Source: an uncultured delta proteobacterium (GTDB taxonomy: Bacteria; Desulfobacterota; Syntrophorhabdia; Syntrophorhabdales; WCHB1-27). Taken from it: a DNA stretch of 64,000 nucleotides. Both the position numbers and the translations under genes were made by a program. Position 1 is the first letter of the stretch, and each line of letters opens with the position of its first letter. Positions 1,934-38,637 of this stretch are shown here, piece after piece. The stretch covers positions 22,233 through 86,232 of the forward strand of contig CAVYJH010000014.1 of assembly GCA_963768735.1 (NCBI GenBank), written 5' to 3'. Below the pieces are notes generated by a model. That model was not told the origin of the DNA. It saw nothing but the letters and a program-made list of their open reading frames with translations, and did not search any database.

Positions 1934-1968
1934 AAAGCCAAACCATCCGCGAGGGTGGGACGGAAAGC
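1934..1968 (+). promoter_or_regulatory. Conserved 5' leader element, copy 1 of 4 (GNRA-capped hairpin flanked by AAAGCC repeats)
   Basis: AAAGCCAAACCATCCGCGAGGGTGGGACGGAAAGC. The stem is CCATCC/GGGTGG (1943-1948/1953-1958) with loop GCGA. It starts about 18 nt after the -10 box. Confidence 0.6.
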
Positions 1969-2177
1969 TTGAGGGTCTCAGTTTAATTCATCACGGAACA
2001 TGCATCAGTGAGACAGCCGGGCTGCCTGAAAAGAAACTTACAGGAGGTTGCTTATGGCAAAAACTGTGGCAGCGCCCGCTCGGTAAAGCATCGTACACAG
2101 CACGTGCGGGTTTATCGTTTATGATAGACAAGAAGTCGAAGATGGTTGAAGGTAACAAATCCCAGAGGAGGTACTGT

Positions 2178-3419: not shown

Positions 3420-4937
3420 TCAGCTTGTGTTCTGATACAGGGCAGCCTGGGCCTTGGCGGTATTGGACGTGAGAAGAATTTGGAGAAACTCTAGTGGATT
3501 TCTTCCCTGCCTGAGTGCGGTAAGTACAAGGCTGGGCAGGATACTATGCGTTCTTAGTCCGCTTATGGATCGAGTGCCGAACATGATTTTCCGAAAGATC
3601 ACCAGAAAGCGGATCGACTGCTCCGCTTGATTGTTTGTCGGCTGCACCCCGGGGTAGCGAAGAAAGGTGAAGAAGTTCTTGCGATCCTTGATGAGGGAGA
3701 CTCGCAAGGCTTCGGCAGGCTTGTAACCGAGCGGGTCTTTACAGAGCTTTTTGAGTTCCGAGACGAGCCGCTTTTCAATACGGGGCGCCTGCTTCCACGT
3801 CCTTGCGCCGGAGAGAAGTTCCCGCCCCAGCGCACAGGCTTTCGAGAAGACCGCGGCGATGCCGGCGCAAAAGGCTTCTGCTTTTCTGTCGCGGTCCTTT
3901 ATGAGCAGAAGCTCTCGGGTGATTTCCTTGGCCTGAGTGATAAGATGGCTCAGACAGGCTTGCCGCGCCTTGGCATGCGCACCGTTATAGGCGGCGTAGC
4001 GATCGGTGACCAGGATGCCCTCAAAGCTCGATCCCAGGATAGATTGGGCCACTTCCGTCGATCGGTGGCGGTCGATGTGGAAGAGCGCCAGATCAGGATT
4101 CCCCGCGTACCACGCATAATGGCCTATGCCGTCATTTCGCCACGAGGTCTCATCGGCATGGATGACGGCCGATGCCTTGATTTTCTCTCGCAGGTCTTCA
4201 TAAATAGCCGCCCCTTTTTGCGCTGCCAGCCGGTCGAACCCCAATGCGGAGGCGCACACAAATTCCAGGCCGAACAACGCCCTGAAGACCTCAGTGACTT
4301 TTCTGTAAGGCATCCCTATCCGATACCGTAAATATATGGCGACGGACTTCGCCACCGGCCCGATAGGGGCATTAAGAAGCTCATCCTCTCCCCCTTGAAC
4401 CACCGACCGGCGACAATGGCCGCAGTATGCCTCTTCGTGCACATACCTCGTAATGATCGTCCGGGGACGAAGCAGAATGTCTTCCTGGAGATGCTCGCTG
4501 ACTTGCCCTGTGGGCAGAAGGCTATCGGATCCGCAATGAGGACATATCGAAGGGGCGGGAAGGTGAACGGTTCTGTCCACACGCGCAGGCTTGGGTCTGG
4601 ACCATCCGGGATGGCCAGTAGGAGCGCCTCGCTTCTTCCTTGTTCCGGCAGGGCTGCCGCTTTCTGAAGGAGGTTTGTTTGCCTTGAACTGTCTGCGATG
4701 GAGCGCGGTATTCTTCGCTTTCAGTTCCGCATTCTCTTTCTCCAGAATCCGGACCTGTTTCATGACTGCGTTCAACCGGGCGTCCAGTACATCGATAATG
4801 CGAAGATGTTCGTCGTACACCTCATCGGCACGCCGGTATCCTTCAAAAACCCACGTGGTGGACAGTCCATCCAGATGCGGACAATGATCCGTATAAGGGC
4901 AGCTAAAGCCATACGGTGGATACGCGGGACGAGGCAC
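3420..4937 (-). CDS. IS66-family transposase
   Basis: 505 aa with an N-terminal coiled-coil/leucine-zipper region (RILEKENAELKAKNTALHRRQF), a Zn-finger-like CPHCG...CGHC, and a DDE region with HADETSW, typical of the IS66 TnpC type. Confidence 0.9.
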   Translation of the reverse strand: MPRPAYPPYGFSCPYTDHCPHLDGLSTTWVFEGYRRADEVYDEHLRIIDVLDARLNAVMKQVRILEKENAELKAKNTALHRRQFKANKPPSESGSPAGTRKKRGAPTGHPGWSRPKPARVDRTVHLPAPSICPHCGSDSLLPTGQVSEHLQEDILLRPRTIITRYVHEEAYCGHCRRSVVQGGEDELLNAPIGPVAKSVAIYLRYRIGMPYRKVTEVFRALFGLEFVCASALGFDRLAAQKGAAIYEDLREKIKASAVIHADETSWRNDGIGHYAWYAGNPDLALFHIDRHRSTEVAQSILGSSFEGILVTDRYAAYNGAHAKARQACLSHLITQAKEITRELLLIKDRDRKAEAFCAGIAAVFSKACALGRELLSGARTWKQAPRIEKRLVSELKKLCKDPLGYKPAEALRVSLIKDRKNFFTFLRYPGVQPTNNQAEQSIRFLVIFRKIMFGTRSISGLRTHSILPSLVLTALRQGRNPLEFLQILLTSNTAKAQAALYQNTS

Positions 4938-10308: not shown

Positions 10309-11700
10309 TTACCACCCGCTCCACGTCACCCCCTGGCCGACGTTGAGCCAGTAACCCGCACCTGGACAGAACTGGCTGAGGGTGCTTGAGAGGTTTGTCG
10401 GGTCGTAAAACTGCCAGCCCTGGGAGGGATAGCCCCAGGAGACCTGAAGGGCGCTGCCAAGAGAGAAGAGGGCCGTCGAGGCGGGGGCGCACGATGTCCC
10501 GTTGTAGCCCACGAGGTTCCATCCGGAAGTAAGGGTAAGAGACGAAGATGGCGCAGTGCCCGAGAGGTCGAGTGTTTTTGCAGAGGTCATCTTTATCCAG
10601 TAGCCCATTCCTGCCTGCATGGTCGTAAGGGTGCTTCCTGCCGCGTCGTTGGGATCGTAGACCTGCCAGGTTTGGTTGGGATAGGCCCAGACCACCTCAT
10701 AGGCGCCCTTGACGCCCGAAAGCACGGAGGCAATGGAGGTGTTGGCAGGCTGCACTGGCAGAGAGACAAGGTTCCAGCCGATGGAGAGCGCAGGCGTGGG
10801 GATCGCCAAGAAGCCATGCTCCACACCGTTCGCGTCATAGTATTGCCCAACGATCGTGCCGCCGTCATTAATGTCATAGGCAAAGGTGGAGGAGGCGCCT
10901 GGGTAATTCAAGGGGGTGTAAGTCGTACCGCTCAAGGAAAAGCCGTGAGATGCACCGCTCGCGTCCTTGTAATGCCCAACGATCGTGCCGCCTTTATTTA
11001 TGGCGGCTGCTGCGGTTGCTGAAGCGCCTGGGTAATTCAAGGGGGTGTAAGTCGTACCGCTCAAGGAAAAGCCATGAAGCGCACCGCTCGCGTCATAGTA
11101 CTCCCCGACAATCGTGCCCCCGGTATTAATGCCATAGGCTTGGGTGGATGAAGCGCCTGGGTAATTCACGGGGGTGTACGTCGTACCGCTCAGGGAAAAG
11201 CCATGGGGCGGACTGTCCTCACTATACGTGTCCCAGTAATCGCCCACAATTACGCCTCCGTCATTAATATGAATGGCCTCTGAAGGATGACCTGGATAAT
11301 TCAGGGAGGTATAGGTCGTACCGCTCAGGGAAAACCCATTATCCACACTGCTACCGTGTCCGTTCCAGTACTCCCCGACAATCGTGCCTCCGCTATTAAT
11401 GCCATTAGCCCAAGTGTATTGAGCGCCGGGGTAAGAAAAAGAGGTATAGGTCCCACCGCTCAGGGAAAAGCCGTGATTATACCCACTCGCGTCCGCGTAT
11501 GTGCCGACAATCGTGCCCCCATTATTTATGGCGTTCGCGGAGGTTGCTGAATTAGGGGCGCCGGCATAGACTGGTGAACCACCGGGGTAATCGACGGTGG
11601 TAAAGGAGTAGTTGGCGGCGTAGGCGTCACTCAACGCGCCGAGGGTAAGAACGAGGGCGATCAGCACTGTTGAACCCTTTTTCACTGAATGCCTCCTCAT
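10309..11700 (-). CDS. Secreted repeat protein (about six or seven ~46-aa HAF-like repeats plus a duplicated C-terminal GWNLV...GYW module)
   Basis: Signal peptide MRRHSVKKGSTVLIALVLTLGALSDAYA. Repeats HGFSLSGTTYTPLNYPGASST.AYGIN.GGTIVG.YYDASG. No PEP-CTERM tail. Confidence 0.7.
   Translation of the reverse strand: MRRHSVKKGSTVLIALVLTLGALSDAYAANYSFTTVDYPGGSPVYAGAPNSATSANAINNGGTIVGTYADASGYNHGFSLSGGTYTSFSYPGAQYTWANGINSGGTIVGEYWNGHGSSVDNGFSLSGTTYTSLNYPGHPSEAIHINDGGVIVGDYWDTYSEDSPPHGFSLSGTTYTPVNYPGASSTQAYGINTGGTIVGEYYDASGALHGFSLSGTTYTPLNYPGASATAAAAINKGGTIVGHYKDASGASHGFSLSGTTYTPLNYPGASSTFAYDINDGGTIVGQYYDANGVEHGFLAIPTPALSIGWNLVSLPVQPANTSIASVLSGVKGAYEVVWAYPNQTWQVYDPNDAAGSTLTTMQAGMGYWIKMTSAKTLDLSGTAPSSSLTLTSGWNLVGYNGTSCAPASTALFSLGSALQVSWGYPSQGWQFYDPTNLSSTLSQFCPGAGYWLNVGQGVTWSGW
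10800..11613 (-). repeat. Intragenic tandem repeats (~130-140 bp units) of the HAF-like repeat gene
   Basis: Near-identical DNA stretches such as GCGCCTGGGTAATTCAAGGGGGTGTAAGTCGTACCGCTCAAGGAAAAGCC recur at about 10897, 11027 and 11155. Confidence 0.7.
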
Positions 11701-11771
11701 GCAAGAAGTTATATCCGGCAGCTCGGCGGTCTTTGCTGATGACCGCCAGAGGCGGCCAACTGGGAGCCGTC

Positions 11772-11807
11772 GGCTTTCCGCACCACCCTCACGGATGGTT
11801 TGGCTTT
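11772..11807 (-). promoter_or_regulatory. Conserved 5' leader element, copy 2 of 4
   Basis: Gene-sense AAAGCCAAACCATCCGTGAGGGTGGTGCGGAAAGCC. The stem is CCATCC/GGGTGG with loop GTGA. Confidence 0.6.
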
Positions 11808-11825
11808 ATCAGATTATGCCCTCAT

Positions 11826-12125: not shown

Positions 12126-12256
12126 TTTCCGTCCCACCGACCTTAGCCGCTGCTTTCGCTATTCCAGGTTATGTCTTATACGGGATATGTAATACAGCGC
12201 ATCATTCATGTCAAGGTGAGGACATGCTGATTCCGGAAAAGTAAATTCCTCTCGCC
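12126..12256 (-). promoter_or_regulatory. Degenerate fifth copy of the surface-protein promoter/leader cassette, with no downstream gene
   Basis: Keeps TTCCGTCCCACC, GCTTTCGC, a TATAAG-like box, TGTCAA (-35) and AAATTCCTCTCGCC in the same order as 23150-23270. The hairpin 3' arm is lost and the -35/-10 spacing is about 28 nt. Confidence 0.4.
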
Positions 12257-13440: not shown

Positions 13441-14259
13441 ATGACCGTTGTTTCCGTGCTATACATAGCCCTCGGCCTCTACCTCACCTCTGCCGTCTGC
13501 TATCTTGTCTCTCTGGCCGGGGCCAGGAAGGGCCTGGAAAAGCCCGCCTACTACTTTTTTACCCTCGCCTTTTCCGTTCATCTCTTTGCCCTGGTCCTCC
13601 GGTATATCGTCAACGGTTACGTGCCGATCACGAACCTCCATGAATCCCTCTCCTTCTTCGCCCTGTGCACGGCGGGCTTCTTTATTTTTCTGAGGCGCGT
13701 CTACAGGGTCGGGGTGCTGGGCAGCATCTTCCTGCCTGCCCTCAGCCTCATGCTCGTCGGGGCCCTTGCCTCCCGCGCCGATATCAGGCCCCTCCCGCCG
13801 ATCCTGCAAAGCTACTGGCTCCCCATTCACACGGCCTTCGCCTTTATCGGCAACGCCGTCTTTTTTACGGGCTTCCTCGTCTCCGTGGTCTATCTTTTTC
13901 TGGAGCGGGGTATAAAGAAGAAGCGGATGCGGGATGTTTCCGGGCGCTTTCCCTCGCTGGAGACGCTCGACCGGATCAACTACAAATGCATGTCCTACGG
14001 GTTCCCTTTTTTGACCATAGGCATTATCACCGGCTCTCTCTGGGCGGAGCTTGCCTGGGGCTCGTACTGGAACTGGGACCCGAAAGAGACGTGGTCGCTC
14101 ATCACGTGGATGATGTACGCCATACTCATTCATAACAGGCTTGCCATCGGCTGGCGGGGGAGGAGGACAGCCTACATGATGATCGCCGGGTTCGTCTCCG
14201 TAATCGTCACGTTTATCGGCGTCAACCTTTTCCTGGGCGGACTTCATTCTTACAGGTGA
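13441..14259 (+). CDS. ccsA: CcsA/HemX-like cytochrome c assembly membrane protein
   Basis: Polytopic membrane protein with the Trp-rich motif WGSYWNWDPKETWSLITW. Sits directly upstream of hemA, as in hemX-hemA arrangements. Confidence 0.8.
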   Translation: MTVVSVLYIALGLYLTSAVCYLVSLAGARKGLEKPAYYFFTLAFSVHLFALVLRYIVNGYVPITNLHESLSFFALCTAGFFIFLRRVYRVGVLGSIFLPALSLMLVGALASRADIRPLPPILQSYWLPIHTAFAFIGNAVFFTGFLVSVVYLFLERGIKKKRMRDVSGRFPSLETLDRINYKCMSYGFPFLTIGIITGSLWAELAWGSYWNWDPKETWSLITWMMYAILIHNRLAIGWRGRRTAYMMIAGFVSVIVTFIGVNLFLGGLHSYR

Positions 14260-14266
14260 AAGACCC

Positions 14267-15551
14267 ATGCACCTCATTGTCGTCGGCCTCAACCACAACA
14301 CCGCGCCCCTTGACATAAGAGAGCGGTGCTTTATCCCCGAAGAGGCGAACAGTGATGCCCTCGGCAAGCTGACAGGCGCAGGCGCCGCCGAGGCCGTGGT
14401 GATCTCCACATGCAATAGGACGGAGGTCTACGCGGCGGCCGCGGATGCCGAAGGCTCAAAACGGGCCGTCATGGGGTTCATGGCCGAGCGCTTCGGGTCG
14501 GCGCCGCTTGCCGATTACCTCTATACGCTGAGCGACGAAGAGGCGTACAGGCACCTGTTTCTCGTTGCCTCCGGGCTCGATTCGATGGTGATAGGAGAGC
14601 CTCAGATACTGGGTCAGGTAAAGGACGCGTACCGGTCGGCGGATGCCCCGGGCTTCGCGGGGCCTTTTCTCGGTCAGGCATTCAGCCGGGCCTTCCAGGT
14701 TGCAAAGCGGGTGCGGACAGAGACGCGGATCGGCTACAACCCCGTCTCGATCAGCGCCATGGCCGTCGAGCTTGCAAGGAAGATATTCGGCGAGTTCGAC
14801 CGGCGGCAGATACTCGTGATCGGGGCAGGGGAGATGTGCGGGATCGCGCTGAAGCACTTCAGGAAGGAGGGTCTCGAACAGGTGTTCGTCACGAACCGCA
14901 CCTTCACAAGGGCGCAGCAGCTTGCCGAAGAGATGGGAGGCATCGCCTATCCTTTCGACGATATCCCGAGCCTCCTCACCAAAGTCGATATGGTGCTCTC
15001 GTCAACGGGCGCGGAAAGGCCGATTGTCGACAAGGCCACGGTCCTCGGCGTCATGAAAAAGAGGAAGAGCCGCCCCCTCTTCTTTATCGACATTGCCGTG
15101 CCGCGGGATATAGATGCTGCCGTTAATGATATCGAGAACGTCTACCTCTACGACATCGACGACCTGAAAGGGCTGTCCCAGGCCCACCTCTCGAACAGGC
15201 TTGAGGAATCGCGAAAGGCGCACGCGATCGTGGACGAAGAAGTACATAAGTTCGGCATGCGGCTCAAAGAGCTGGAGATGACCCCTTTGATCGCCAGAAT
15301 CCGTGAGAACATGGAGGCCATAAGGACCGGGGAGATGAAAAGGGCGCTCCAGAAGCTGAAAGGGGCGGACCCTGAGACGATCAGGCAGGCTCGATATGCT
15401 CACCAGGGCAATCGTCAACAAGATCGTCCACCCGCACCTGATGATGATCAAGAAGAACGGGAGCCCCGTGGTGCTCGACCTTATGAAGAATCTGTTCTTA
15501 CCGGGGGAGGAAGATGAAAAAGAAATGGATGGTGGGGACCAGGGGGAGTAA
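14267..15551 (+). CDS. hemA: Glutamyl-tRNA reductase, with an apparent +1 frameshift near 15388
   Basis: MHLIVVGLNHNTAPLDIRE...VISTCNRTEVY...GEPQILGQVK. After ...DPETIRQ the conserved C-terminus LDMLTRAIVNKIVHPHLMMIKKNGSPVVLDLMKNLF is only read in the next frame (stop 15549-15551). The track ORF ends at 15517 in the wrong frame. Confidence 0.85.
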
Positions 15552-16422
15552 GCTCGCCCTTGTCCAGACAGGAATGGTGATAGACGCCCTGGCCGGCCTC
15601 TACCCCGAAAGCGACTTTGCCGTGAAGATCATAAAGACTACCGGCGATTCCGTATGGAATACTCCGCTCTACATGATCGGTGAAAAGGGGCTCTTCATCA
15701 AGGAGATAGAGGAGGCCCTTGCTGCCGGTGAGGTCGACCTCGCCGTTCACAGCATCAAGGACCTGCCCACGGAGCTTCTCGGGGGCCTGAGCCTCTCGGC
15801 CGTCCTCCACAGGGAGGACCCGAGGGATACCTTCATCTCCGTGAAGCATGCACGCCTTGCCGACGCGCCGGTCGGGGCGAGGATCGGCACGAGCAGCATG
15901 CGCCGCCGGGCTCAGCTCCTCGCCTTGAGACCCGACCTCAAGATAGCGCCCTTGCGCGGGAATGTGGACACACGGGTGAGGAAGTTTCAGGAACAGGATA
16001 TGGACGCCGTCATACTTGCCCATGCGGGGGTAAAGAGGATGGGCCTCGAAGAGCATGTCAGGGAGGTCCTATCCCTGGACGTGATGGTACCCGCCTGCGG
16101 GCAGGGGGCCATCGGGATAGAGACAAGGTCGGGCAGCGATGCCGCCTTGCTGGTGAAGCCGCTCGACCATGAGGAGACCCGTTTCGAAGTGGAGATGGAG
16201 CGCGCGTTCCAGGCCGGCGTGGGGGGCGGATGCAGCGTGCCTCTCGGCGTCAATGCAAGCCTTTCGGGCGACCGCGTGACGCTGCGCGCCGCATACGGCG
16301 ACGAGGCCGGCGCGATCATCTTCAGGGACCGTGCGGAAGGTGAAAGGGCGGAAGGGGCCGCCCTGGTGGAGGGCCTCCTCGACGGGTTGAGGCGCGCGCG
16401 CGTCTCGGCGCCTTCCCGCTGA
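15514..16422 (+). CDS. hemC: Hydroxymethylbilane synthase (porphobilinogen deaminase)
   Basis: VGTRGSKLALVQT...IKTTGD...LFIKEIEEAL..GEVDLAVHSIKDLP. An alternative start is the ATG at 15529. Confidence 0.9.
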   Translation: MKKKWMVGTRGSKLALVQTGMVIDALAGLYPESDFAVKIIKTTGDSVWNTPLYMIGEKGLFIKEIEEALAAGEVDLAVHSIKDLPTELLGGLSLSAVLHREDPRDTFISVKHARLADAPVGARIGTSSMRRRAQLLALRPDLKIAPLRGNVDTRVRKFQEQDMDAVILAHAGVKRMGLEEHVREVLSLDVMVPACGQGAIGIETRSGSDAALLVKPLDHEETRFEVEMERAFQAGVGGGCSVPLGVNASLSGDRVTLRAAYGDEAGAIIFRDRAEGERAEGAALVEGLLDGLRRARVSAPSR

Positions 16423-18382: not shown

Positions 18383-18985
18383 TTACCCCTGGACTCTTTT
18401 CCTGATCCCGAAGAGGCCGAGCAGGCCCGGGGCAAGAAGGAGTGCTGAGGGCGGGACGGGGACGCTGGTCACGTCAAGGCTGACGGCACTTTTGCCGGAT
18501 ACTGGATACGCCTGGGTCTGGTCAACAGACAGGGACCCCGCATAAGGGCCGGTGACGGTAAACTGCGAATTGGAGAGCCCCGAAAGGTCGGAGAACTGGA
18601 TAACCCAGCCGTAGTAGTGGATGGGGCCGCCGGTAGTTTCGAAGTTGGAGACCGTCCCGGTGGCGGTGAAGGATGGGTAGCCGGAGATATCTCCCGTAAA
18701 TGTGGCTGCGCCTGAGGTATTGTTCAATACTATTGTTCCCCCAAGGATCTGCACTGCGTTGCCGATCTGATTTCCCGAGCCATCGTTCCCCAACAAGCTC
18801 CAACTGTTATTTCTTTCGGTGATGGTATATACATTATTACTGGGACCGCTGATGGCGGTTGTCGAGCCACCTGACACGATTGTCTCGGAGGCTGCCATGG
18901 GCATCGCCTTCGCCACTCCCGGTGCGCCTACCAACAGGCCGATTGCCAAAACAAGACCGATTGCACACAAACTAATCTTTTTCAC
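18383..18985 (-). CDS. PEP-CTERM sorting-domain secreted protein
   Basis: GTG start preceded by AAGGAGGA. Signal peptide MKKISLCAIGLVLAIGLLVGAPGVAKA. C-terminus VPVPPSALLLAPGLLGLFGIRKRVQG. Confidence 0.8.
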   Translation of the reverse strand: MKKISLCAIGLVLAIGLLVGAPGVAKAMPMAASETIVSGGSTTAISGPSNNVYTITERNNSWSLLGNDGSGNQIGNAVQILGGTIVLNNTSGAATFTGDISGYPSFTATGTVSNFETTGGPIHYYGWVIQFSDLSGLSNSQFTVTGPYAGSLSVDQTQAYPVSGKSAVSLDVTSVPVPPSALLLAPGLLGLFGIRKRVQG

Positions 18986-19132
18986 GTATCCTCCTTGTAC
19001 TATTCAGATTTGACTGCCGGAAAATGAACTGCCGCGTGACGTTTTTCACCTCCTTCCCTCCGCGTAAGAAAGGTTATTGGCAGCCCGGCCGTCTTTCTGA
19101 ATGGTTCACAAGGTGCATACCAGAGACCCGAT

Positions 19133-19168
19133 GGCTTTCCGCCCCACCGTCGCCGATGGTTTGGCTTT
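19133..19168 (-). promoter_or_regulatory. Conserved 5' leader element, copy 3 of 4 (carries a compensatory stem change)
   Basis: Gene-sense AAAGCCAAACCATCGGCGACGGTGGGGCGGAAAGCC. The stem is CCATCG/CGGTGG with loop GCGA. Confidence 0.6.
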
Positions 19169-19180
19169 ATCAACTGAGAG

Positions 19181-19209
19181 AGTATACTATGGTCATTACA
19201 CATTGTCAA
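19181..19209 (-). promoter_or_regulatory. sigma70-like promoter of PEP-CTERM gene 18383-18985
   Basis: Gene-sense TTGACA-N17-TATACT, preceded by an A-rich tract. Confidence 0.5.
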
Positions 19210-21046: not shown

Positions 21047-22285
21047 CAGGGCAAGCGCATTTGAAAACTATCTAACTAATAGAAATTTCTAGACATTTGA
21101 TGATATATATGCTATCTACCTGAAACTATTAACGTTATTAGGTGGAGGGCATGCATGGATAAAGGGAACTCGATCAGTGACTTCTTTTCGGACCTCACCG
21201 AACCTCGGGACTCAAATAAGAGACACAAGCTCATCGACATTATTACCATAGCCCTGTGCGCGGTGATCTGCGGCGCCGATACGTGGGAAGATATAGAGGA
21301 GTTCGGTGATACCAAAAGGGAGTGGTTTGAGCGGTTTCTCGAATTACCTCACGGCATTCCCGGTCACGATACTTTTGCCAGGGTCTTTGCGAGCATGAAC
21401 CCCAAAGAGTTCCAGCAGGCCTTTCTCAGATGGGTAGAAGCTGTGCAGACAGTGACGAAGCGGATTGTCGCCATAGATGGAAAGACGCTGCGTCGCTCAT
21501 ACGAGAAGAACAAATCCCCAATTCACCTGGTCAGCGCCTGGGCCGTGGAGAACAAGATGGTCTTGGGACAGGTCAAGACCAGGGAGAAGTCGAACGAGAT
21601 TACCGCTATCCCGGAACTGCTTTCGGTCCTGGAGCTGGGAGGGTGCATAGTGACTATTGACGCCATGGGGTGCCAGAAGGAAATCGTCAAGACGATTATC
21701 GGCAAGGGCGCAGACTATGTGCTTGGCCTGAAGGGGAACCAGGGAGCGCTCCATGACGACGTGAAGCTCTACTTCGAGGATTGTCTGGCATCAGGGTTCA
21801 AGGACATCGAATACGATTACCACGAAACCATCGATGGCGACCATGGGAGGATTGAGACAAGACGGTACTGGACCACCTCCGATATCGACTGGCTGCCGGA
21901 CAGGGCGCTCTGGAAAAACCTCTCATCCATCGTCATGGTGCAGAGGGAACGGTATGTAAACGGCACAACAAGCATGGAGGCGAGCTATTATGTGACAAGC
22001 CTCAAGAGCGATGCCGAACATGTTGCTCGGGCAGTGCGGGGCCACTGGGGCATCGAGAACAGCCTTCACTGGGTGCTCGACATCGCCTTCCGGGAAGACG
22101 AATCACGGATACGGAAGGACAACGCCCCTGCCAATTTCGCTATCATACGACATATGGCGCTCAATCTCTTGAGAAAAGAAACCTCCCTCAGAAGGAGCAT
22201 AAAGACAAAAAGGCTTAAGGCCGGATGGGATACAGACTACCTTGCCAGGATACTCAGGGGGTAGTTTTCAAATGCGCTTGCCCTG
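21047..22285 (+). mobile_element. ISAs1-family insertion sequence
   Basis: 24-bp perfect terminal inverted repeats CAGGGCAAGCGCATTTGAAAACTA (21047-21070 / 22262-22285), flanked by the 10-bp direct repeat GGGGAGAGGG (21037-21046 / 22286-22295). Confidence 0.85.
21155..22264 (+). CDS. ISAs1-family transposase (H-repeat-associated protein type)
   Basis: FSDLTEPRDSNKRHKLIDIITIALCAVICGADTWEDIEEFG...IDAMGCQKEI...HWGIENSLHWVLDIAFREDESR, the typical ISAs1/DDE_Tnp_1-associated signature. Confidence 0.9.
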   Translation: MDKGNSISDFFSDLTEPRDSNKRHKLIDIITIALCAVICGADTWEDIEEFGDTKREWFERFLELPHGIPGHDTFARVFASMNPKEFQQAFLRWVEAVQTVTKRIVAIDGKTLRRSYEKNKSPIHLVSAWAVENKMVLGQVKTREKSNEITAIPELLSVLELGGCIVTIDAMGCQKEIVKTIIGKGADYVLGLKGNQGALHDDVKLYFEDCLASGFKDIEYDYHETIDGDHGRIETRRYWTTSDIDWLPDRALWKNLSSIVMVQRERYVNGTTSMEASYYVTSLKSDAEHVARAVRGHWGIENSLHWVLDIAFREDESRIRKDNAPANFAIIRHMALNLLRKETSLRRSIKTKRLKAGWDTDYLARILRG

Positions 22286-23061: not shown

Positions 23062-23149
23062 TGCATATCCTCCTGTTTTGAAAGATTATACTCTGGGAGC
23101 CAGGCTGTCTTCGGGGCCCCTTACGGACCCGATTAACGCAAGACCCTTC

Positions 23150-23185
23150 GGCTTTCCGTCCCACCCTCGCGGATGGTTTGGCTTT
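23150..23185 (-). promoter_or_regulatory. Conserved 5' leader element, copy 4 of 4
   Basis: Gene-sense AAAGCCAAACCATCCGCGAGGGTGGGACGGAAAGCC. Its hairpin and flanks are identical to those of copy 1. Confidence 0.6.
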
Positions 23186-23203
23186 CGCAGATTGTTTGAG
23201 TAT

Positions 23204-25945: not shown

Positions 25946-26072
25946 TTTTGAACGCTACTAGTGGTTATCTGTATACAGTACCTGCCCGCCTTGGGCTGCC
26001 CGTTCGTACGCTCACGGGTCCTCCTGCTTCAAAAATGGCCCTAAGGGAGAGGGAACGGCATGACCTAAGGAG

Positions 26073-27344
26073 GTGAAGATGCTGCGCCGCGTGCGGTGGC
26101 TGTTTTTAGGACTTCTTCTTTTCGGCTGCCTTGCCGCTGAGTCACACGCAAGCGAGCCCCTCACCTGGCAGCAGGTCCGTGCCAAATTCATCGCCGTAAA
26201 CCCGGCCCTCATCGCGGCACGGCTCGGCATCGAGGAGTCGAAGGCCCAGGAGATCACCGCCTACCTGCGCCCGAACCCGCAATTCACCGCTGCAACGGAT
26301 TACATCCACCCCTTCAAGTCCTACGGCGCCCTGGAGGACGCGCAGCCTTCGGTCTCGTTGAGCTACCTCATCGAGCGGTTGAACAAGCGGGGACTCCGCC
26401 TGGAGACCGCGCAGAAGGGGACGGCCGTCGCCTTCTCACAACTGGCGGACCAGGAGAGGACCCTCCTCTTTGCCCTGCGGAGTGCCTTCATACAGGTGCT
26501 CCAGCAAAAGGCGGTCCTGGACCTGGCGAAGGAGAACCTCGCCTACTACGACAAGGTGTTGGACGTGAGCGCCGAGCGCTTCAGGACAGGCGACATCGCC
26601 AGGGTCGACCTGGACCGCCTGCAACTCCAGCGCGTCCAGTATGAATCGGACGTGCAGACTGCTACCGTGAACCTCCGCACGGCAAAGATCCAGCTCCTGA
26701 CGCTCCTGAACGACCGGACCCCCGTGGAGCGATTCGACGTGACGGGCCCCTTCGACTTTGCCGACCATGTTGCACCCCTCCCCGAGTTCCGCACTCTAGC
26801 CCTGGAGACAAGGCCGGACCTCCGGGCCGCCGTGCAGTCGATCGACCAGGCAAGAAGCGCGAATAAGCTCGCCGAGGCGAATGCCTCCACCGACCCGACC
26901 ATAGGCATAGATGCCGGGCGGCTTCCTCTGAGCACCGGGCCCGTGAGCCCCGGCTATGTGGGTGTGAGCGTCAGCATCCCCTTGCGCATCTTCGACAGGA
27001 ACCAGGGGGAGAGGCTCCGCACAAAACTGGACATCACGCGCAACGAGAGGCTCCGCGACCTCACGGAAGCGCAGCTCTACAGCGATGTCGATTCGGCCCA
27101 TGCGACGATTGTGAGCGCCGTGATCCTTTTGAAGCCCTACAAGACGCAGTACCTGAAGCAGGCCGCCACGGTCCGCGACACCGTGACCTTCTCCTACGAG
27201 CGCGGCGGGGCAGCGCTCCTCGATTTTCTCGATGCCCAGCGCGACTACCGGAGCGTCCGCCTCGCCTACCTGAACCTTGTGGGTTCTTATTTATCCGCCG
27301 CGGCTCAATTGAATCTCGCCGTAGGCCGGGAGGTTATCGAATGA
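26073..27344 (+). CDS. czcC: Outer-membrane efflux protein (TolC/CzcC family), copy 1
   Basis: 423 aa with a signal peptide and two OEP-type repeats. First gene of a C-B-A efflux operon. Confidence 0.85.
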   Translation: MKMLRRVRWLFLGLLLFGCLAAESHASEPLTWQQVRAKFIAVNPALIAARLGIEESKAQEITAYLRPNPQFTAATDYIHPFKSYGALEDAQPSVSLSYLIERLNKRGLRLETAQKGTAVAFSQLADQERTLLFALRSAFIQVLQQKAVLDLAKENLAYYDKVLDVSAERFRTGDIARVDLDRLQLQRVQYESDVQTATVNLRTAKIQLLTLLNDRTPVERFDVTGPFDFADHVAPLPEFRTLALETRPDLRAAVQSIDQARSANKLAEANASTDPTIGIDAGRLPLSTGPVSPGYVGVSVSIPLRIFDRNQGERLRTKLDITRNERLRDLTEAQLYSDVDSAHATIVSAVILLKPYKTQYLKQAATVRDTVTFSYERGGAALLDFLDAQRDYRSVRLAYLNLVGSYLSAAAQLNLAVGREVIE

Positions 27345-28474
27345 AACGTCTGATCTTCTTTGGAGCTCTTTGCCTCGTCCTTGTCTCCCTTCTCGCCGGC
27401 TGCAGCGGGAAGGTGGAGGCGGACCTCGGGGCGCCGCCGAAGGCTGAAGTCGAGCGCGAAGAAGACTCCGGCACCTTCAAGGTAGCCCACCCGGAGCAGT
27501 TTCCCCAGGTAGCGGCCGGTGTGTACAAGGCCGCGCCCGAGCTGACCGTGACGGGGGTGGTGAGCCCGGACGTGGCGCGCTCCGTGCCCGCAATATCGCT
27601 TGCCTCCGGCCGCGTGGTCGAAGTGAAGGCGCGCCTCGGCGACACCGTGAAGAAGGGGCAGCTCCTCCTGAGGGTGCGGAGCGCCGACATCTCGGGCGCC
27701 TTCTCGGATTACCGGCAGGCACTTGCCGACGAGACACTGACAAAGGCGCAGCTTGAGCGCGCGAAGGTACTCTTCGAGAAAGGGGCGATAGCGAAAAAAG
27801 ACCTGGAAGTGGCCGTCGATATCGGAGAAAAGGCCAGGGTCAACCGCGAGGCCACGGTAGAGAAGCTAAAGGTCCTCGGTGTGACCGACCTGGAGCACCA
27901 TCCGAATGGGATCGTCGACGTCTACGCCCCCATCTCGGGCGTTATCGTCGAGCAGAACGTGACCGCAGGCGCAGGGGTGAAGACCCTCGATAATTCGCCT
28001 AACCTCTTCACCATCGCCAACCTCGACGATGTCTGGATTATGTGCGACGTATACGAGAATGATTTCCCCTTTGTCCGCGTCGGCGAGTATGCGGACGTCC
28101 GTCTGAACGCCTATCCCGGCAAGGTCTTTAAAGGCCGCATCAGCAACATTGCGCCGATTCTCGACCCCGCCATCCGCACCGCGAAGGTCCGGCTGGAGAT
28201 GCACAACCCGGGGCTCATGCGCATCGGCATGTTCGCCACCGCCACGTTCTACGGCCATGAGCAGGAGACACACTCCGTGGTCCCGGCGGGTGCAATCCTC
28301 CATCTCCACGACCGCGATTGGGTCTACGTACCCTTGCAGGGGTCCGAGTTCCGGCGCGTCGAAGTGAAAAGCGGCCGGATGCTCCCCGGCGCCATGCAGG
28401 AAGTGACGGGGATCGAGCCCGGCCGGAAAGTGGTGGCCAACGCCCTGGCGTTCCAGGTTACGGCGGAGCAATAG
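26126..28474 (+). repeat. 2.35-kb segment ~99.6% identical to 32048-34397 (czcC body + czcB)
   Basis: The constant offset of 5922 nt is visible in identical ORF-track entries. I counted about 9 substitutions and one 1-nt indel by eye. Confidence 0.85.
27341..28474 (+). CDS. czcB: RND efflux periplasmic adaptor (membrane fusion protein, CzcB-like), copy 1
   Basis: 377 aa with a lipoprotein-like N-terminus (LLAGCSG) and barrel-sandwich/hairpin motifs. ATGA overlap with czcC. Confidence 0.85.
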   Translation: MKRLIFFGALCLVLVSLLAGCSGKVEADLGAPPKAEVEREEDSGTFKVAHPEQFPQVAAGVYKAAPELTVTGVVSPDVARSVPAISLASGRVVEVKARLGDTVKKGQLLLRVRSADISGAFSDYRQALADETLTKAQLERAKVLFEKGAIAKKDLEVAVDIGEKARVNREATVEKLKVLGVTDLEHHPNGIVDVYAPISGVIVEQNVTAGAGVKTLDNSPNLFTIANLDDVWIMCDVYENDFPFVRVGEYADVRLNAYPGKVFKGRISNIAPILDPAIRTAKVRLEMHNPGLMRIGMFATATFYGHEQETHSVVPAGAILHLHDRDWVYVPLQGSEFRRVEVKSGRMLPGAMQEVTGIEPGRKVVANALAFQVTAEQ

Positions 28475-31400
28475 GTGATACGGAGAATCGTAGATTTTGC
28501 GCTGAATAGGCGCCTCCTGGTGATAGCATTTGCCCTTTTGCTCTTTGGCTGTGGCATTATGGCCTTCCGTCATCTCCCTGTCGAGGCATATCCGGACGTC
28601 GCGAATAACTATGCCTGGGTCATCACGCAGTGGCCGGGAAGGGCCGCCGAGGAGGTGGAGCAGCAGGCGACCATCCCCCTTGAGACCGCGCTGAACGGTA
28701 TTCCCCAGCTCTCCCATCTGCGGTCGGTATCCCTTGCCGGCCTGTCCGTTGTCATACTCATTTTCGACGACAACTCGGATAACGCATGGAACCGGCAGAA
28801 GGTACTCGAACGATTATCCATGGTTACCCTTCCAGGCAACCTGCAGCCCAACATCGGCCCCGACTTCAGCCCCGTGGGCCAAATATACTTTTACACTTTG
28901 AGGAGCACCAATCCACGATACGACGCCATTGACCTGAAGTCCCTGCAGGATTGGGTGCTCGTAAAGCAGTTCAAGACGGTGCCGAACGTGATCGACGTGT
29001 CGAGCTTCGGCGGCCCCACGCGGGAATACCAGGTGCGCGTCGACCCAGATAAGCTCGTTTCCTACGGGTTAAGCATCGGCCAGGTGGAGCAGCAGCTCGC
29101 CAACAACAACGTGAACGCGGGCGGCAGCTTTATCGAGGCGGGTACCCAGCAGATCAACGTGCGCGCCCTCGGATTGATCCGCAATAGTCGGGATATCGAG
29201 GAGACGGTCATCACCGCAAAGAACGGCACGCCGGTACGGGTCAAGGACATCGCCACGGTGTCGCAGGGTCCGAAGATACGCTTGGGCCAGTTCGGCAGGG
29301 CCATTCATCGCACCGACGGGAAAATCATCGACAACGAAGACGTCGTCTCCGGCATCGTCCTCATGCGCAAAGGGGCCGATTTCGATGCGACCCTCGAGGG
29401 GGTCCACAAGAAGGTGGAAGAGCTGAACGACCACATCCTGCCCCCGGGCGTGAAAGTGGTCCCCTTCAACGACCGGAGCGACCTCGTTTACCATACGACG
29501 CACACGGTCCTCCGTAACCTCACGGAAGGGCTCATCCTCGTGACGATCGTGCTCTCTTTTTTCTCGGGAATATCAGGGGCGCCCTGATCGTGGCGCTCAC
29601 CATCCCCTTTTCGCTCCTCTTCGCATCGATCTGTCTCGACCTGAGGAAGATACCGGCGAACCTGCTCTCCCTGGGCGCCCTCGACTTCGGCATGGTTGTC
29701 GACGGGACCGTCGTGATGGTGGAGAACATCATCCGCCACCTGGGTCACAGGGACCCGGCCTCATCCGTGAAAGACAGGATCAGGGCCGCTTCCCATGAGG
29801 TGCAGAGGCCGGTCTTCTACGCCATTGCCATCATCATCAGCGGCTACTTGCCTATCTTTACCCTCCAGCGCGTGGAAGGACGCCTGTTCAAGCCCATGGC
29901 CTGGACCGTGGGGTTCGCGCTGCTGGGCGCCATGATTTTCTCCATGACCATCGCCCCGGTCCTCGTCAGTTTCTTATTCAAGAAAGAAACACCCGAGTGG
30001 CACAATCCCGTGGTTGTCTGGCTTACGAAAAAGTACCGGAAGGGTCTGACCTGGTCTATTCATCACCGCATGGTGATGGTCGGGGTCGCTGTCCTCGCTC
30101 TGGGCGGCAGTATCTGCCTTGCAATGAGCGGCGCCATCGGGTCGGAGTTCCTGCCCCATCTTGATGAGGGGGCAATCTGGGTGCGCGGCACCCTTGCGCC
30201 GAGTACCGGGCCGAGCGAGGGCATCAGGGTCGCGAACCAGGCCCGGATCGTGCTCGCCTCGTTCCCCGAGGTGACGATGGCAACCAGCCAGGTAGGACGA
30301 CCCGATGACGGGTTGGACACCACAGGATTTTTCAACACCGAATACTGTGTGCCCCTCAAGCCCAGGGGCCAATGGCGTCCGGTTTTCCACCAGGACAAGG
30401 AGGAGTTGATCACTGCCATGAGCAGGGAGCTCAGGAAGATCCCCGGCGTGATCTGGAACTTTTCCCAACCCATTCAGGACAACATGGAAGAGGCGGTGAG
30501 CGGGGTCAAGGGGCAGCTCGCGACGAAGATCTACGGCGAGGACTTGAAGGTACTGGAAGCCAAAGGCGAAGAGATAGTCCGGGTGATGCGGCACATCAAC
30601 GGGATCAAGGACCTTGGACTCTTCCGCGTCATCGGCCAGCCGAACCTGAACTTCGAGGTGGACCGCACCAAGGCCGCCCGCTACCAGATCAACGTGGCCG
30701 ACGTGCAGGATGCCGTGCAGACGGCCGTGGGCGGCAATGCCCTCACCCAGGTGCTGCAGGGCGAGCAGCGCTACGACCTGGTCATGCGCTACCTTCCTCG
30801 CTTCCGGGATACGAAGGAGGCCCTCGAAAGGGTGCGTCTCCTCAGCCCTTCCCTCGAAAGGGTGTCCCTCGCGCAGCTCTGCAAGGTGCAGACGCGGGAC
30901 GGCGCCGCGGAGATCTATCGTGAGGGGAACAAGCGCTACGTGGCGATAAAGTTCAGCGTCCGGGGCCGCGACCTCGGGAGTGCGGTCAAGGAAGCGATGA
31001 CAAAGGTAGAAAAACGGGTGAAGCTGCCGCCCGGATATTATATCGATTGGTCGGGCGAGTACGAAAGCCAGCAGCGGGCCGCGGCCCGGCTGGCCGTCAT
31101 CGTGCCGCTGACGATCTTCCTCATCTTCCTGATCATCTACTTTGCCTTCGGCTCCGCCAAGTGGGCCTGTCTCAATCTGGTCACGGTAGCCATGGCGCCA
31201 ATCGGGGGACTGCTTGCGCTGCTCGTGACGGGCACGTATTTCAGCGTTTCCTCGGGGGTGGGATTCTTGGCCCTCTTCGGGGTCTCCGTGCAGACCGGCG
31301 TGGTGATGGTCGTCTATATCAATCAACTGCGCGCAAGAGGTTACTCGGTTGTCGATGCCGCCATCGAGGGGGCAACCCGACGCTTGAGGCCCATTATGAT

Positions 31401-31650
31401 GACCATGCTCGTGGCAACCCTCGGTCTTCTGCCGGCGGCCATGTCCCATGCCATCGGCTCGGATTCGCAGCGTCCCTTCGCCATCGTCATTGTAGGCGGT
31501 CTAATAACCGACCTGGTGTTGAGCATTTTTTTGCTGCCCACTTTCTACGTGTGGTGGGCCAGGCCCACAGACCAACTGCCGGCGGGTGACGAGTCGAAGA
31601 GTATCGATGCCGGAGACGAGATCAGCGAGGGCGTAAATGGTGACGGTTAA
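28475..31650 (+). CDS. czcA: CzcA/CusA-family heavy-metal RND transporter, copy 1, with an apparent -1 frameshift in a T-run (29557-29562)
   Basis: Track ORFs 28475-29587 and 29590-31650 are the two halves of one ~1056-aa protein. Adding one T restores ...VLSFFLGNIRGALIVALTIPFSLLF, matching copy 2. Confidence 0.85.
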
Positions 31651-31852: not shown

Positions 31853-31902
31853 AAGATAACACGAAAGATGCCGGAAAGATAGGGGGTTTTGCACGAAAGA
31901 TA
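31853..31902 (+). promoter_or_regulatory. Array of four GAAAGAT(A/G) direct repeats upstream of czcC copy 2
   Basis: AAGAT(A/G) starts at 31853, 31865, 31876 and 31897 (spacing 12/11/21). It is followed by TTGACC-N17-TAGATT. Confidence 0.45.
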
Positions 31903-31973
31903 CTTTGACCCGGCAATGGCGGTCGGTTAGATTCTATATCCCTATACCCTCATATGGATAGGGTAAGAGTGTC

Positions 31974-33266
31974 GTGGTGAATAGGGAGACGTCCTTGAAA
32001 GCAAGGTTCGCGTTGTCTGGCGCCCTGTCATTGGCCCTGATGCTTTTCTGCCTTGCCGCTGAGTCACACGCAAGCGAGCCCCTCACCTGGCAGCAGGTCC
32101 GTGCCAAATTCATCGCCGTAAACCCGGCCCTCATCGCGGCACGGCTCGGCATCGAGGAGTCGAAGGCCCAGGAGATCACCGCCTACCTGCGCCCGAACCC
32201 GCAATTCACCGCTGCAACGGATTACATCCACCCCTTCAAGTCCTACGGCGCCCTGGAGGACGCGCAGCCTTCGGTCTCGTTGAGCTACCTCATCGAGCGG
32301 TTGAACAAGCGGGGACTCCGCCTGGAGACCGCGCAGAAGGGGACGGCCGTCGCCTTCTCACAACTGGCGGACCAGGAGAGGACCCTCCTCTTTGCCCTGC
32401 GGAGTGCCTTCATACAGGTGCTCCAGCAAAAGGCGGTCCTGGACCTGGCGAAGGAGAACCTCGCCTACTACGACAAGGTGTTGGACGTGAGCGCCGAGCG
32501 CTTCAGGACAGGCGACATCGCCAGGGTCGACCTGGACCGCCTGCAGCTCCAGCGCGTCCAGTATGAATCGGACGTGCAGACTGCTACCGTGAACCTCCGC
32601 ACGGCAAAGATCCAGCTCCTGACGCTCCTGAACGACCGGACCCCCGTGGAGCGATTCGACGTGACGGGCCCCTTCGACTTTGCCGACCATGTTGCACCCC
32701 TCCCCGAGTTCCGCACTCTAGCCCTGGAGACAAGGCCGGACCTCCGGGCCGCCGTGCAGTCGATCGACCAGGCAAGAAGCGCGAATAAGCTCGCCGAGGC
32801 GAATGCCTCCACCGACCCGACCATAGGCATAGATGCCGGGCGGCTTCCTCTGAGCACCGGGCCCGTGAGCCCCGGCTATGTGGGTGTGAGCGTCAGCATC
32901 CCCTTGCGCATCTTCGACAGGAACCAGGGGGAGAGGCTCCGCACAAAACTGGACATCACGCGCAACGAGAGGCTCCGCGACCTCACGGAAGCGCAGCTCT
33001 ACAGCGATGTCGATTCGGCCCATGCGACGATTGTGAGCGCCGTGATCCTTTTGAAGCCCTACAAGACGCAGTACCTGAAGCAGGCCGCCACGGTCCGCGA
33101 CACCGTGACCTTCTCCTACGAGCGCGGCGGGGCAGCGCTCCTCGATTTTCTCGATGCCCAGCGCGACTACCGGAGCGTCCGCCTCGCCTACCTGAACCTT
33201 GTGGGTTCTTATTTATCCGCCGCGGCCCAATTGAACCTCGCCGTAGGCCGGGAGGTTATCGAATGA
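31974..33266 (+). CDS. czcC: Outer-membrane efflux protein (TolC/CzcC family), copy 2
   Basis: Identical to copy 1 from CLAAESHASEPL onward, with a different signal peptide. The track start is GTG 31974. TTG 31995 (MKARFALSG..., GGGAG upstream) is an alternative. Confidence 0.85.
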   Translation: MVNRETSLKARFALSGALSLALMLFCLAAESHASEPLTWQQVRAKFIAVNPALIAARLGIEESKAQEITAYLRPNPQFTAATDYIHPFKSYGALEDAQPSVSLSYLIERLNKRGLRLETAQKGTAVAFSQLADQERTLLFALRSAFIQVLQQKAVLDLAKENLAYYDKVLDVSAERFRTGDIARVDLDRLQLQRVQYESDVQTATVNLRTAKIQLLTLLNDRTPVERFDVTGPFDFADHVAPLPEFRTLALETRPDLRAAVQSIDQARSANKLAEANASTDPTIGIDAGRLPLSTGPVSPGYVGVSVSIPLRIFDRNQGERLRTKLDITRNERLRDLTEAQLYSDVDSAHATIVSAVILLKPYKTQYLKQAATVRDTVTFSYERGGAALLDFLDAQRDYRSVRLAYLNLVGSYLSAAAQLNLAVGREVIE

Positions 33267-34397
33267 AACGTCTGATCTTCTTTGGAGCTCTTTGCCTCGT
33301 CCTTGTCTCCCTTCTCGCCGGCTGCAGCGGGAAGGTGGAGGCGGACCTCGGGGCGCCGCCGAAGCCTGAAGTCGAGCGCGAAGAAGACTCCGGCACCTTC
33401 AAGGTAGCCCACCCGGAGCAGTTTCCCCAGGTAGCGGCCGGTGTGTACAAGGCCGCGCCCGAGCCTGACCGTGACGGGGGTGGTGAGCCCGGACGTGGCG
33501 CGCTCCGTGCCCGCAATATCGCTCGCCTCCGGCCGCGTGGTCGAAGTGAAGGCGCGCCTCGGCGACACCGTGAAGAAGGGGCAGCTCCTCCTGAGGGTGC
33601 GGAGCGCCGACATCTCGGGCGCCTTCTCGGATTACCGGCAGGCACTTGCCGACGAGACACTGACAAAGGCGCAGCTTGAGCGCGCGAAGGTACTCTTCGA
33701 GAAAGGGGCGATAGCGAAAAAAGACCTGGAAGTGGCCGTCGATATCGGAGAAAAGGCCAGGGTCAACCGCGAGGCCACGGTAGAGAAGCTAAAGGTCCTC
33801 GGTGTGACCGACCTGGAGCACCATCCGAATGGGATCGTCGACGTCTACGCCCCCATCTCGGGCGTTATCGTCGAGCAGAACGTGACCGCAGGCGCAGGGG
33901 TGAAGACCCTCGATAATTCGCCTAACCTCTTCACCATCGCCAACCTCGACGATGTCTGGATTATGTGCGACGTATACGAGAATGATTTCCCCTTTGTCCG
34001 CGTCGGCGAGTATGCGGACGTCCGTCTGAACGCCTATCCCGGCAAGGTCTTTAAAGGCCGCATCAGCAACATTGCGCCGATTCTCGACCCCGCCATCCGC
34101 ACCGCGAAGGTCCGGCTGGAGATGCACAACCCGGGGCTCATGCGCATCGGCATGTTCGCCACCGCCACGTTCTACGGCCATGAGCAGGAGACACACTCCG
34201 TGGTCCCGGCGGGTGCAATCCTCCATCTCCACGACCGTGATTGGGTCTACGTACCCTTGCAGGGGTCCGAGTTCCGGCGCGTCGAAGTGAAAAGCGGCCG
34301 GATGCTCCCCGGCGCCATGCAGGAAGTGACGGGGATCGAGCCCGGCAGGAAAGTGGTGGCCAACGCCCTGGCCTTCCAGGTTACGGCGGAGCAGTAG
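32048..34397 (+). repeat. Second copy of the 2.35-kb near-identical czcC-czcB segment
   Basis: See 26126-28474. Confidence 0.85.
33263..34397 (+). CDS. czcB: RND efflux periplasmic adaptor, copy 2, broken by a 1-nt insertion at 33464/33465
   Basis: Copy 1 reads CCCGAGCTGACCGTG and copy 2 reads CCCGAGCCTGACCGTG. Track ORFs 33263-33679 and 33441-34397 are the two pieces. Confidence 0.8.
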
Positions 34398-37300: not shown

Positions 37301-37574
37301 GCGCCGGTTGAGGCCGATCATGATGACCATGCTCGTGGCCACCCTCGGACTCCTGCCGGCGGCCATGTCCCACGACATCGGCTCCGACTCGCAGCGCCCC
37401 TTTGCCATAGTCGTGGTGGGCGGATTGGTCACCGATCTGGTCATGAGCATCTTTCTTTTGCCCACGTTTTACGTCTGGTGGGCGCGCCCCACCGACCACC
37501 TGCCCAAGCCTGAAGAGTCGAAAAGCATCGATGCCGGAGACGAGATCAGCGAGGGCGTAAATGGTGACGGTTAA
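34398..37574 (+). CDS. czcA: CzcA/CusA-family RND transporter, copy 2 (diverged from copy 1), with two apparent frameshifts (~34739 and 36356)
   Basis: Track ORFs 34398-34799, 34553-36481 and 36372-37574 together give a full-length CzcA. Comparison with copy 1 shows one missing base (CGCACTCCATGG) and one extra G (GAGCTCGAGGAAG versus GAGCTCAGGAAG). Confidence 0.8.
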
Positions 37575-37640
37575 AGGGCGGGCCCCATGAAAAAGGGGTG
37601 CGGCCATAGCCTGTAACGAGGAAAATTGAGCGACCGGGAA

Positions 37641-38291: not shown

Positions 38292-38389
38292 ACGCCGGAG
38301 GGATTCTTTTGTGGGAGGTGACCCGTCCCCGCGTTTCTTATATTCGGTTATTTCGAAACGATTGACCACGAAACCGTCCCGTGATATAA

Positions 38390-38575
38390 CAGAAACACTT
38401 CGGGTGCCGAAAGGCGTAATAGGGAATCCTGTGAGGACCGCAAAGGGTCCGAGTCGGGAGCGGTCCCGCCGCTGTAACCGGGGACGAAAACCAACATAGC
38501 CACTGAGCGTCGGTTCGGGAAGGCTGGTGAGTAGGACGAGCCGGGAGCCAGAAGACCTGCCCGAGGGTCGGTCCG
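38390..38575 (+). promoter_or_regulatory. Cobalamin (B12) riboswitch
   Basis: GGGTGCC...AATAGGGAATCCTGTGAG...GCGGTCCCGCCGCTGTAA...GCCACTG...GGGAAGGC...GCCAGAAGACCTGCCC. All the conserved core strings and the B12 box are in the canonical order. Confidence 0.85.
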
Positions 38576-38637
38576 CACTTCAAAGAGGCGTGGACGTTTC
38601 CCGCGGAGGAAACCGAGGATGAAGTAAATCAGGGTGC

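Follow-up and report, generated by a model that had tools for sequence, protein, structure and literature searches.

Bacteria use c-di-GMP as a biofilm signal, and the c-di-GMP-I riboswitch is a well-known RNA that senses it. The first description of the GEMM motif, in 2007, already reported covariation in the tetraloop-capped stem of this RNA and the tracking of loop class with receptor class (PMC1950547). The 6-bp stem has since been called P1 (Weinberg 2007), P1b (PMC11705072) and P2 (PMC9262584), and its tetraloop begins at G32 in Vc2 numbering (PMC11705072). Recognition of c-di-GMP is set by G20 and C92, and riboswitches of the cGAMP class are told by an A in place of G20 (PMC6140456); the signature of the Hypr enzymes that synthesize cGAMP is a Ser where canonical GGDEF domains have Asp (PMC6456294). 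For other riboswitches of this class, switching under kinetic control is on record (PMC9262584). Numbering and ligand rules used here were taken from PMC6140456, PMC11705072 and PMC5888326.

Four leaders in the window (the whole stretch of DNA that was analysed, 64,000 nucleotides) share a tetraloop hairpin. Copies 1 (1943-1958, plus strand) and 4 (23161-23176, minus strand) read CCATCC-GCGA-GGGTGG, copy 2 (11783-11798, minus strand) has the same stem with a GTGA loop, and copy 3 (19144-19159, minus strand) reads CCATCG-GCGA-CGGTGG, with G at 19154 and C at 19149 as the swapped bases. The preliminary description was accurate in these sequences and in noting that loop variation among the four copies stays within GNRA (GCGA or GTGA only). 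Its statement that the surrounding block is otherwise invariant was too strong, because the four copies differ at 6 of its 36 positions (Vc2 positions 31, 33, 36, 42, 43 and 52), and copy 3 itself has G at position 43, two bases beyond the 3′ end of the stem, where copies 1 and 4 have A. Rfam covariance models place the swapped-pair hairpin in a minus-strand c-di-GMP-I (GEMM-I) riboswitch, as its GNRA-capped helix, and all four window copies exceeded an Rfam cut-off. We put the probability that the element belongs to this family and has c-di-GMP as its ligand at about 95%; the family assignment is direct, and ligand binding is predicted from it and from the pocket nucleotides. The parts of the copy-3 aptamer and the other copies are as follows.

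19174-19075, minus strand: c-di-GMP-I (GEMM-I) riboswitch aptamer, copy 3 (Rfam clan CL00126)
19144-19159, minus strand: 6-bp stem with GCGA (GNRA/GYRA) tetraloop, Vc2 positions 26-41, present in the MFE and centroid structures
19149-19154, minus strand: swapped tetraloop-closing pair, G31 (19154) with C36 (19149), C-G in most other copies
19139-19164, minus strand: 2-bp lower stem, C21-G46 and C22-G45, below a 3x3 internal loop, with C-G/G-C covariation across copies
19076-19174, minus strand: closing helix P1, 4 bp, 19174-19171 with 19079-19076
19089-19141, minus strand: long-range tertiary pair C44 (19141)-G83 (19089)
19165, minus strand: G20, predicted to contact one ligand guanine (rule from PMC6140456)
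19138, minus strand: A47, part of the predicted ligand pocket (the GGC variant model has a consensus G here)
19080, minus strand: C92, predicted Watson-Crick partner of the second ligand guanine (PMC6140456)
1927-2029, plus strand: riboswitch copy 1, C-G closing pair, RF01051 53.7 bits, PEP-CTERM-type gene downstream
11714-11814, minus strand: riboswitch copy 2, C-G closing pair, RF01051 41.7 bits, HAF-repeat secreted protein (TIGR02913) downstream
23092-23192, minus strand: riboswitch copy 4, C-G closing pair, RF01051 51.5 bits, VPLPA-CTERM-like gene downstream

Copy 3 scored 60.2 bits with RF03167 (cut-off 59) and 55.2 bits with RF01051 (cut-off 35), and it has the architecture of RF01051, with 2-bp and 6-bp stems, a 3-nt internal loop, a GNRA tetraloop, an AAA linker and covariation. 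Since the tetraloop starts at G32, the swapped pair is Vc2 31-36. The sequence of P1 varies among the four window copies with pairing kept in each, and P1 is weak or short in many copies. The letters at positions 44 and 83, whose tertiary role is known (PMC11705072), are C and G in 111 of 116 copies. GAAA loops come with an 11-nt-type receptor in 18 of 26 cases, and GYRA loops come without this receptor in 79 of 81. Across the whole genome, 37 Rfam matches for the riboswitch were obtained, 32 of them above cut-off. Copy number within the family ranges from 1 to 43 per genome, the highest values occurring in the window's genus and one other. The window also holds a decayed riboswitch copy without an Rfam match behind a TTGACA promoter box (12126-12215, minus strand), which retains the 3′ side of the stem together with the junction after it, has lost the 5′ arm and loop, and has C at position 36, the G-C type; a cobalamin riboswitch lies at 38385-38578 (plus strand, 113 bits).

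The four window copies alone make the swap a single event, so the argument for selection on pairing depends on further copies. Of the 36 Rfam matches from the same genome that could be aligned in register, 30 have C-G at 31-36 and 6 have G-C. Because a structure-aware model would bias toward pairing, we also searched the genome with anchors that leave the inner stem unconstrained; this search, blind to the pair, returned 42 copies (35 C-G, 6 G-C, 1 G-U and no mismatches), and the reversed genome gave no matches. In other genomes of the family, 85 distinct copies, drawn from the better-scoring Rfam matches and thus possibly favouring paired stems, comprise 59 C-G, 22 G-C, 3 U-A and 1 U-G, again with no mismatches. 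A naive permutation test on the own-genome copies gave p = 5e-7 for the pair, a figure that ignores the kinship of the copies, overstates the case for that reason and was set aside. Instead, since the copies are related, a tree of 116 copies was built with the pair masked. By parsimony the G-C state changed 12 times on the best tree, the bootstrap of which had not fully converged, and no fewer than 5 changes remain when well-supported branches alone are counted. Pairing of 31 with 36 across copies is beyond chance. The supported clade that contains copy 3 has 19 members, of which 14 are G-C, and the closest neighbours of copy 3 on the tree also carry G-C; the swap was therefore inherited from a paralogous subfamily and is not a new event.

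Other positions behave in the same way, as pairs 21-46 (C-G or G-C), 22-45 and 28-39 and the closing helix P1 also covary. Within the copy-3 subfamily (17 aligned copies from five genomes of one Syntrophorhabdales-like genus), RNAalifold counted 12 G-C and 5 C-G at 31-36, and the aptamer structure scored above all shuffles and slid controls. Predicted stem energies are −8.3 kcal/mol with C-G and −7.6 kcal/mol with G-C, and the mismatched intermediates fall to −4.1 and −5.3 kcal/mol, so that a mismatch at the closing pair is predicted to cost 3-4 kcal/mol. We suggest that the 6-bp stem must form if its GNRA loop is to dock on the neighbouring helix and the pocket of G20, A47 and C92 is to close around c-di-GMP. 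The closing pair would then be required to pair, with its orientation nearly free energetically, so that C-G and G-C have replaced each other repeatedly and single changes would be purged.

The preliminary description had argued for selection on RNA or hairpin-DNA structure rather than on a linear protein-binding site. Repeated joint changes and the lack of mismatched intermediates in the further copies bear out the argument for pairing: all 42 own-genome and 85 relatives' copies can pair. Of the two structures it had left open, RNA stands and hairpin DNA falls. A palindromic protein operator or a DNA hairpin would mimic compensation by symmetric change, and a double change that preserves an inverted repeat formally fits a dimeric operator or a cruciform. 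We nevertheless regard a DNA-level element as scarcely credible. Several stem positions retain G-U pairs (at 29-38, 24 of 36 own-genome copies have U-G), which favours an RNA strand; the aptamer always lies on the sense strand between promoter and gene, making the element strand-specific relative to both; and the full riboswitch model is matched, including distant tertiary contacts. An error in the consensus, the other worry raised at the outset, or in the assembly is more remote still. The contigs of three DNA runs did not reach over the pair in this strain, the motif matches in them being other riboswitch copies. Four other genomes (G001, G002, G003 and G006) have the identical 19-mer, G-C pair included, the nearest relatives of copy 3 on the tree share its pair, and we rejected this explanation on the strength of these independent assemblies. 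Thus, the swap is real. Because the element is a known riboswitch for which covariation was part of the original description, the swap is an expected feature and not a discovery.

The ligand is most likely c-di-GMP, given the pocket of G20, A47 and C92 and the lack of a Hypr-type cGAMP cyclase among the GGDEF domains. G20 occurs in 35 of 36 own-genome and 84 of 85 related copies, and A47 in all 36 and all 85. The genome has 14 GGDEF matches, 12 with a GG[D/E]EF motif, from which the host is predicted to make c-di-GMP. None of the 13 alignable GGDEF domains in this 94% complete genome has the Hypr serine (Asn+9), all having Asp, and one degenerate match was unreadable. The sole A20 parse among the 85 relatives' copies is L200 (G002:C140), which has G21-C46; a shift of register or a genuine copy of the cGAMP type could explain it.

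Two other specificities were considered. By its nearest HemC relatives, the host is a Syntrophorhabdales-like deltaproteobacterium. A GEMM-Ib riboswitch sensing 3′,3′-cGAMP, as in Geobacter, would suit a deltaproteobacterial host with the same fold; the GYRA loop and C21-G46 presumably resemble Geobacter sequences as well, and we counted them on that side. Some natural aptamers are also bispecific (PMC6140456). However, position 20 is G rather than A, here as in nearly all own-genome copies, and the Hypr serine appears in no alignable GGDEF domain, so the cGAMP variant was rejected as very unlikely. The c-di-GMP-I-GGC variant (RF03167), possibly of altered specificity, is the top-scoring model for copy 3, narrowly above its cut-off. 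The GGC of its name we take to refer to positions 20, 47 and 92. This top score is misleading, because copy 3, with A at position 47, departs from the G of the model consensus; copy 3 also lies above the RF01051 cut-off, and we consider the variant highly improbable and rejected it on A47. The preferred reading thus remains a c-di-GMP-I aptamer that most likely binds c-di-GMP.

Upstream and downstream of the aptamer, the copy-3 locus has a predicted promoter and a gene for a putative surface protein.

19181-19209, minus strand: sigma-70-type promoter, TTGACA-17-TATACT, 11 of 12 consensus matches, called by consensus only
18383-18985, minus strand: putatively regulated gene, predicted 200-aa protein with a signal-peptide-like N-terminus and a PEP-CTERM/VPLPA-type tail

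From the promoter at 19209-19181, RNA would start near 19174, at about the first base of P1. The same arrangement of promoter and aptamer precedes most genomic copies. PEP-CTERM family models match the product of 18985-18383 only below their cut-offs. By pattern search, genes with a PEP-CTERM-type tail follow 19 of the 37 genomic riboswitch matches; a rough count gave ∼37 ORFs with such a tail in the genome, which also encodes an exosortase. The exosortase match (G000:C3:1054798-1055561) is split into two parts, of which the N-terminal part lies in another short frame; a frameshift or a sequencing error may be the cause. Under copy 2 lies a gene for a HAF-repeat secreted protein (10309-11685, minus strand) with DNA repeats of 129-135 nt, and a near-identical leader with a paralogue of this gene is found at G000:C3:1362472. 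Transposase genes occur near copies 1 and 4 (IS66 family, 3420-4937, minus strand; DDE_Tnp_1, 21155-22264, plus strand), repeats were noted at 1373, 2951 and 3399, and a ccsB, hemA, hemC cluster (13441-16422, plus strand) lies between copies 2 and 3. Elsewhere in the window, ∼26000-31650 and 31900-37600 form a large tandem duplication with a spacing of ∼5.92 kb and 84-100% identity, which either reflects a genuine duplication of a gene cluster or stems from the assembly. Our literature search found no paper that joins Syntrophorhabdus, c-di-GMP and riboswitch.

Between the copy-3 aptamer and its gene, folding predictions and the subfamily alignment pointed to three elements of a candidate expression platform.

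19012-19033, minus strand: conserved anti-aptamer strand, candidate switching element, 14 bp with aptamer 19093-19079, including C92
19046-19055, minus strand: Shine-Dalgarno-like element, GGxGGUG invariant in the 17 subfamily copies
18990-18996, minus strand: Shine-Dalgarno sequence of the gene that follows, with predicted pairing in the ligand-free fold to 19107-19113 of the aptamer's P3 insert

When the copy-3 leader was folded without constraints, the tetraloop hairpin was kept, 19093-19079 paired with 19033-19012, and the structure extended over the gene's Shine-Dalgarno sequence (z −2.8). The cost of opening the ribosome site was 10.0 kcal/mol in this free fold and 2.8 kcal/mol with the aptamer enforced. 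RNAalifold without constraints picked the same 14-bp helix in the 17 subfamily copies, where 95% of cells are paired compared with 10-52% for slid partners, and the duplex was better than shuffled linkers at ≤5% in 13 of the 17. No two-sided change was found in this helix among the 17 copies, because the aptamer side is nearly invariant, and the shuffle control was not exceeded; as all changes are one-sided, this is conserved complementarity and not covariation. By secondary-structure energy alone, enforcing the aptamer costs ∼23 kcal/mol compared with the ligand-free fold of the full length, so switching would need co-transcriptional timing. From the anti-aptamer helix and the lower cost of opening the Shine-Dalgarno sequence, we infer an ON switch for translation that is decided co-transcriptionally, and we rate such a switch in copy 3 as somewhat better than an even bet. 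The riboswitch would begin at the predicted transcription start and control the gene for the PEP-CTERM-type surface protein. Without ligand, the downstream strand would pair with the 3′ strand of the aptamer, and the helix would extend and bury the ribosome-binding site; c-di-GMP bound during transcription would lock the aptamer and leave that site open.

This prediction does not extend to all copies. The predicted gain in access is large in 7 of the 17 subfamily copies (4.6-9.4 kcal/mol) and about zero or negative in several others. Over 87 copies the median gain was 1.0 kcal/mol, with 13 copies in the opposite direction, and on that median we rejected a rule that all copies are ON switches. 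Copies with GAAA loops are predicted to be OFF (d −2 to −7), and those with GYRA loops mostly ON or neutral. Given that the element is a riboswitch, an OFF switch or control at the level of transcription (e.g. by Rho-dependent termination, or through the upstream Shine-Dalgarno-like element and a short leader frame) is a serious possibility, which we place appreciably below even odds. The OFF prediction for GAAA-type copies fits it, as do the invariance of the GGxGGUG element, a hairpin directly after P1 that can cover this element in copy 3 and similar hairpins over the true Shine-Dalgarno sequence of copies 2 and 4 in the aptamer state. Against it, the main Shine-Dalgarno sequence is clearly more open with the aptamer enforced in copy 3 and six close relatives, and the sense strand of the copy-3 leader has no terminator-like site, that is, no intrinsic terminator. 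Frames from the GTG of the Shine-Dalgarno-like element run from 2 to 25+ codons with no shared sequence, so that the leader frame is conserved neither in length nor in sequence and a conserved leader peptide was rejected. For the ligand-bound state, the region 3′ of P1 gave no consensus structure (−0.5 kcal/mol). Leader 1 also has a Shine-Dalgarno-like element with a short frame (2043-2086, plus strand).

The swap itself only confirms that the copies have been kept as folded riboswitches. The wider interest lies in their number, at least 32 c-di-GMP-I riboswitches per genome in this lineage, about half of them directly before PEP-CTERM-type surface proteins. The genes that they precede can be taken directly as candidates for attachment or aggregation, and the copies form a natural paralogue set in which to follow the evolution of expression platforms on a single aptamer. 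We propose tentatively, at just short of even chances, that the 14-bp anti-aptamer helix and the invariant Shine-Dalgarno-like element without a conserved frame make up a previously undescribed platform, that its bearers are kinetically controlled ON switches for translation, and that 30-40 riboswitches form a regulon of most exosortase-sorted proteins. A literature search for the expression platform of the copy-3 subfamily did not find it described. If the proposal is true, most exosortase-sorted surface proteins would be under direct control of c-di-GMP through these riboswitches.

Among described systems, the highest-scoring model for copy 3, the c-di-GMP-I-GGC variant (RF03167), differs in having a consensus G where copy 3 has A47. 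The GEMM-Ib cGAMP riboswitches of Geobacter (Gs1761, pilM) share the fold, a deltaproteobacterial host and many copies per genome; they differ in having A20 rather than the G20 seen here, a Hypr GGDEF signature that was not found in the alignable domains of this genome, and pili and cytochromes as targets in place of PEP-CTERM-type proteins. The pilM riboswitch, moreover, has an intrinsic terminator (PMC9262584), which copy 3 lacks. Methylophaga nitratireducenticrescens GP59, a different organism, likewise has four c-di-GMP riboswitches clustered before PEP-CTERM/VPLPA-CTERM-type genes (PMC12530212), with 7 copies compared with at least 32 here. The closest counterpart is the c-di-GMP-I riboswitch itself (RF01051, Vibrio cholerae Vc2), which has the same 2-bp and 6-bp stems, 3-nt internal loop, GNRA tetraloop and AAA linker, the same G20/A47/C92 pocket and C44-G83 contact (PMC6140456; PMC11705072), and the same placement 5′ of extracellular or membrane genes with covariation in the stem (PMC1950547). 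Two departures of copy 3 from it are variants already known: the GYRA loop has no 11-nt receptor to go with it, and C21-G46 stands in place of G21-C46. Copy 3 further differs in closing its tetraloop with G-C where C-G would be expected, in the greater length of its P3 insert, in an expression platform specific to the lineage and in an expansion to at least 32 copies in one genome.
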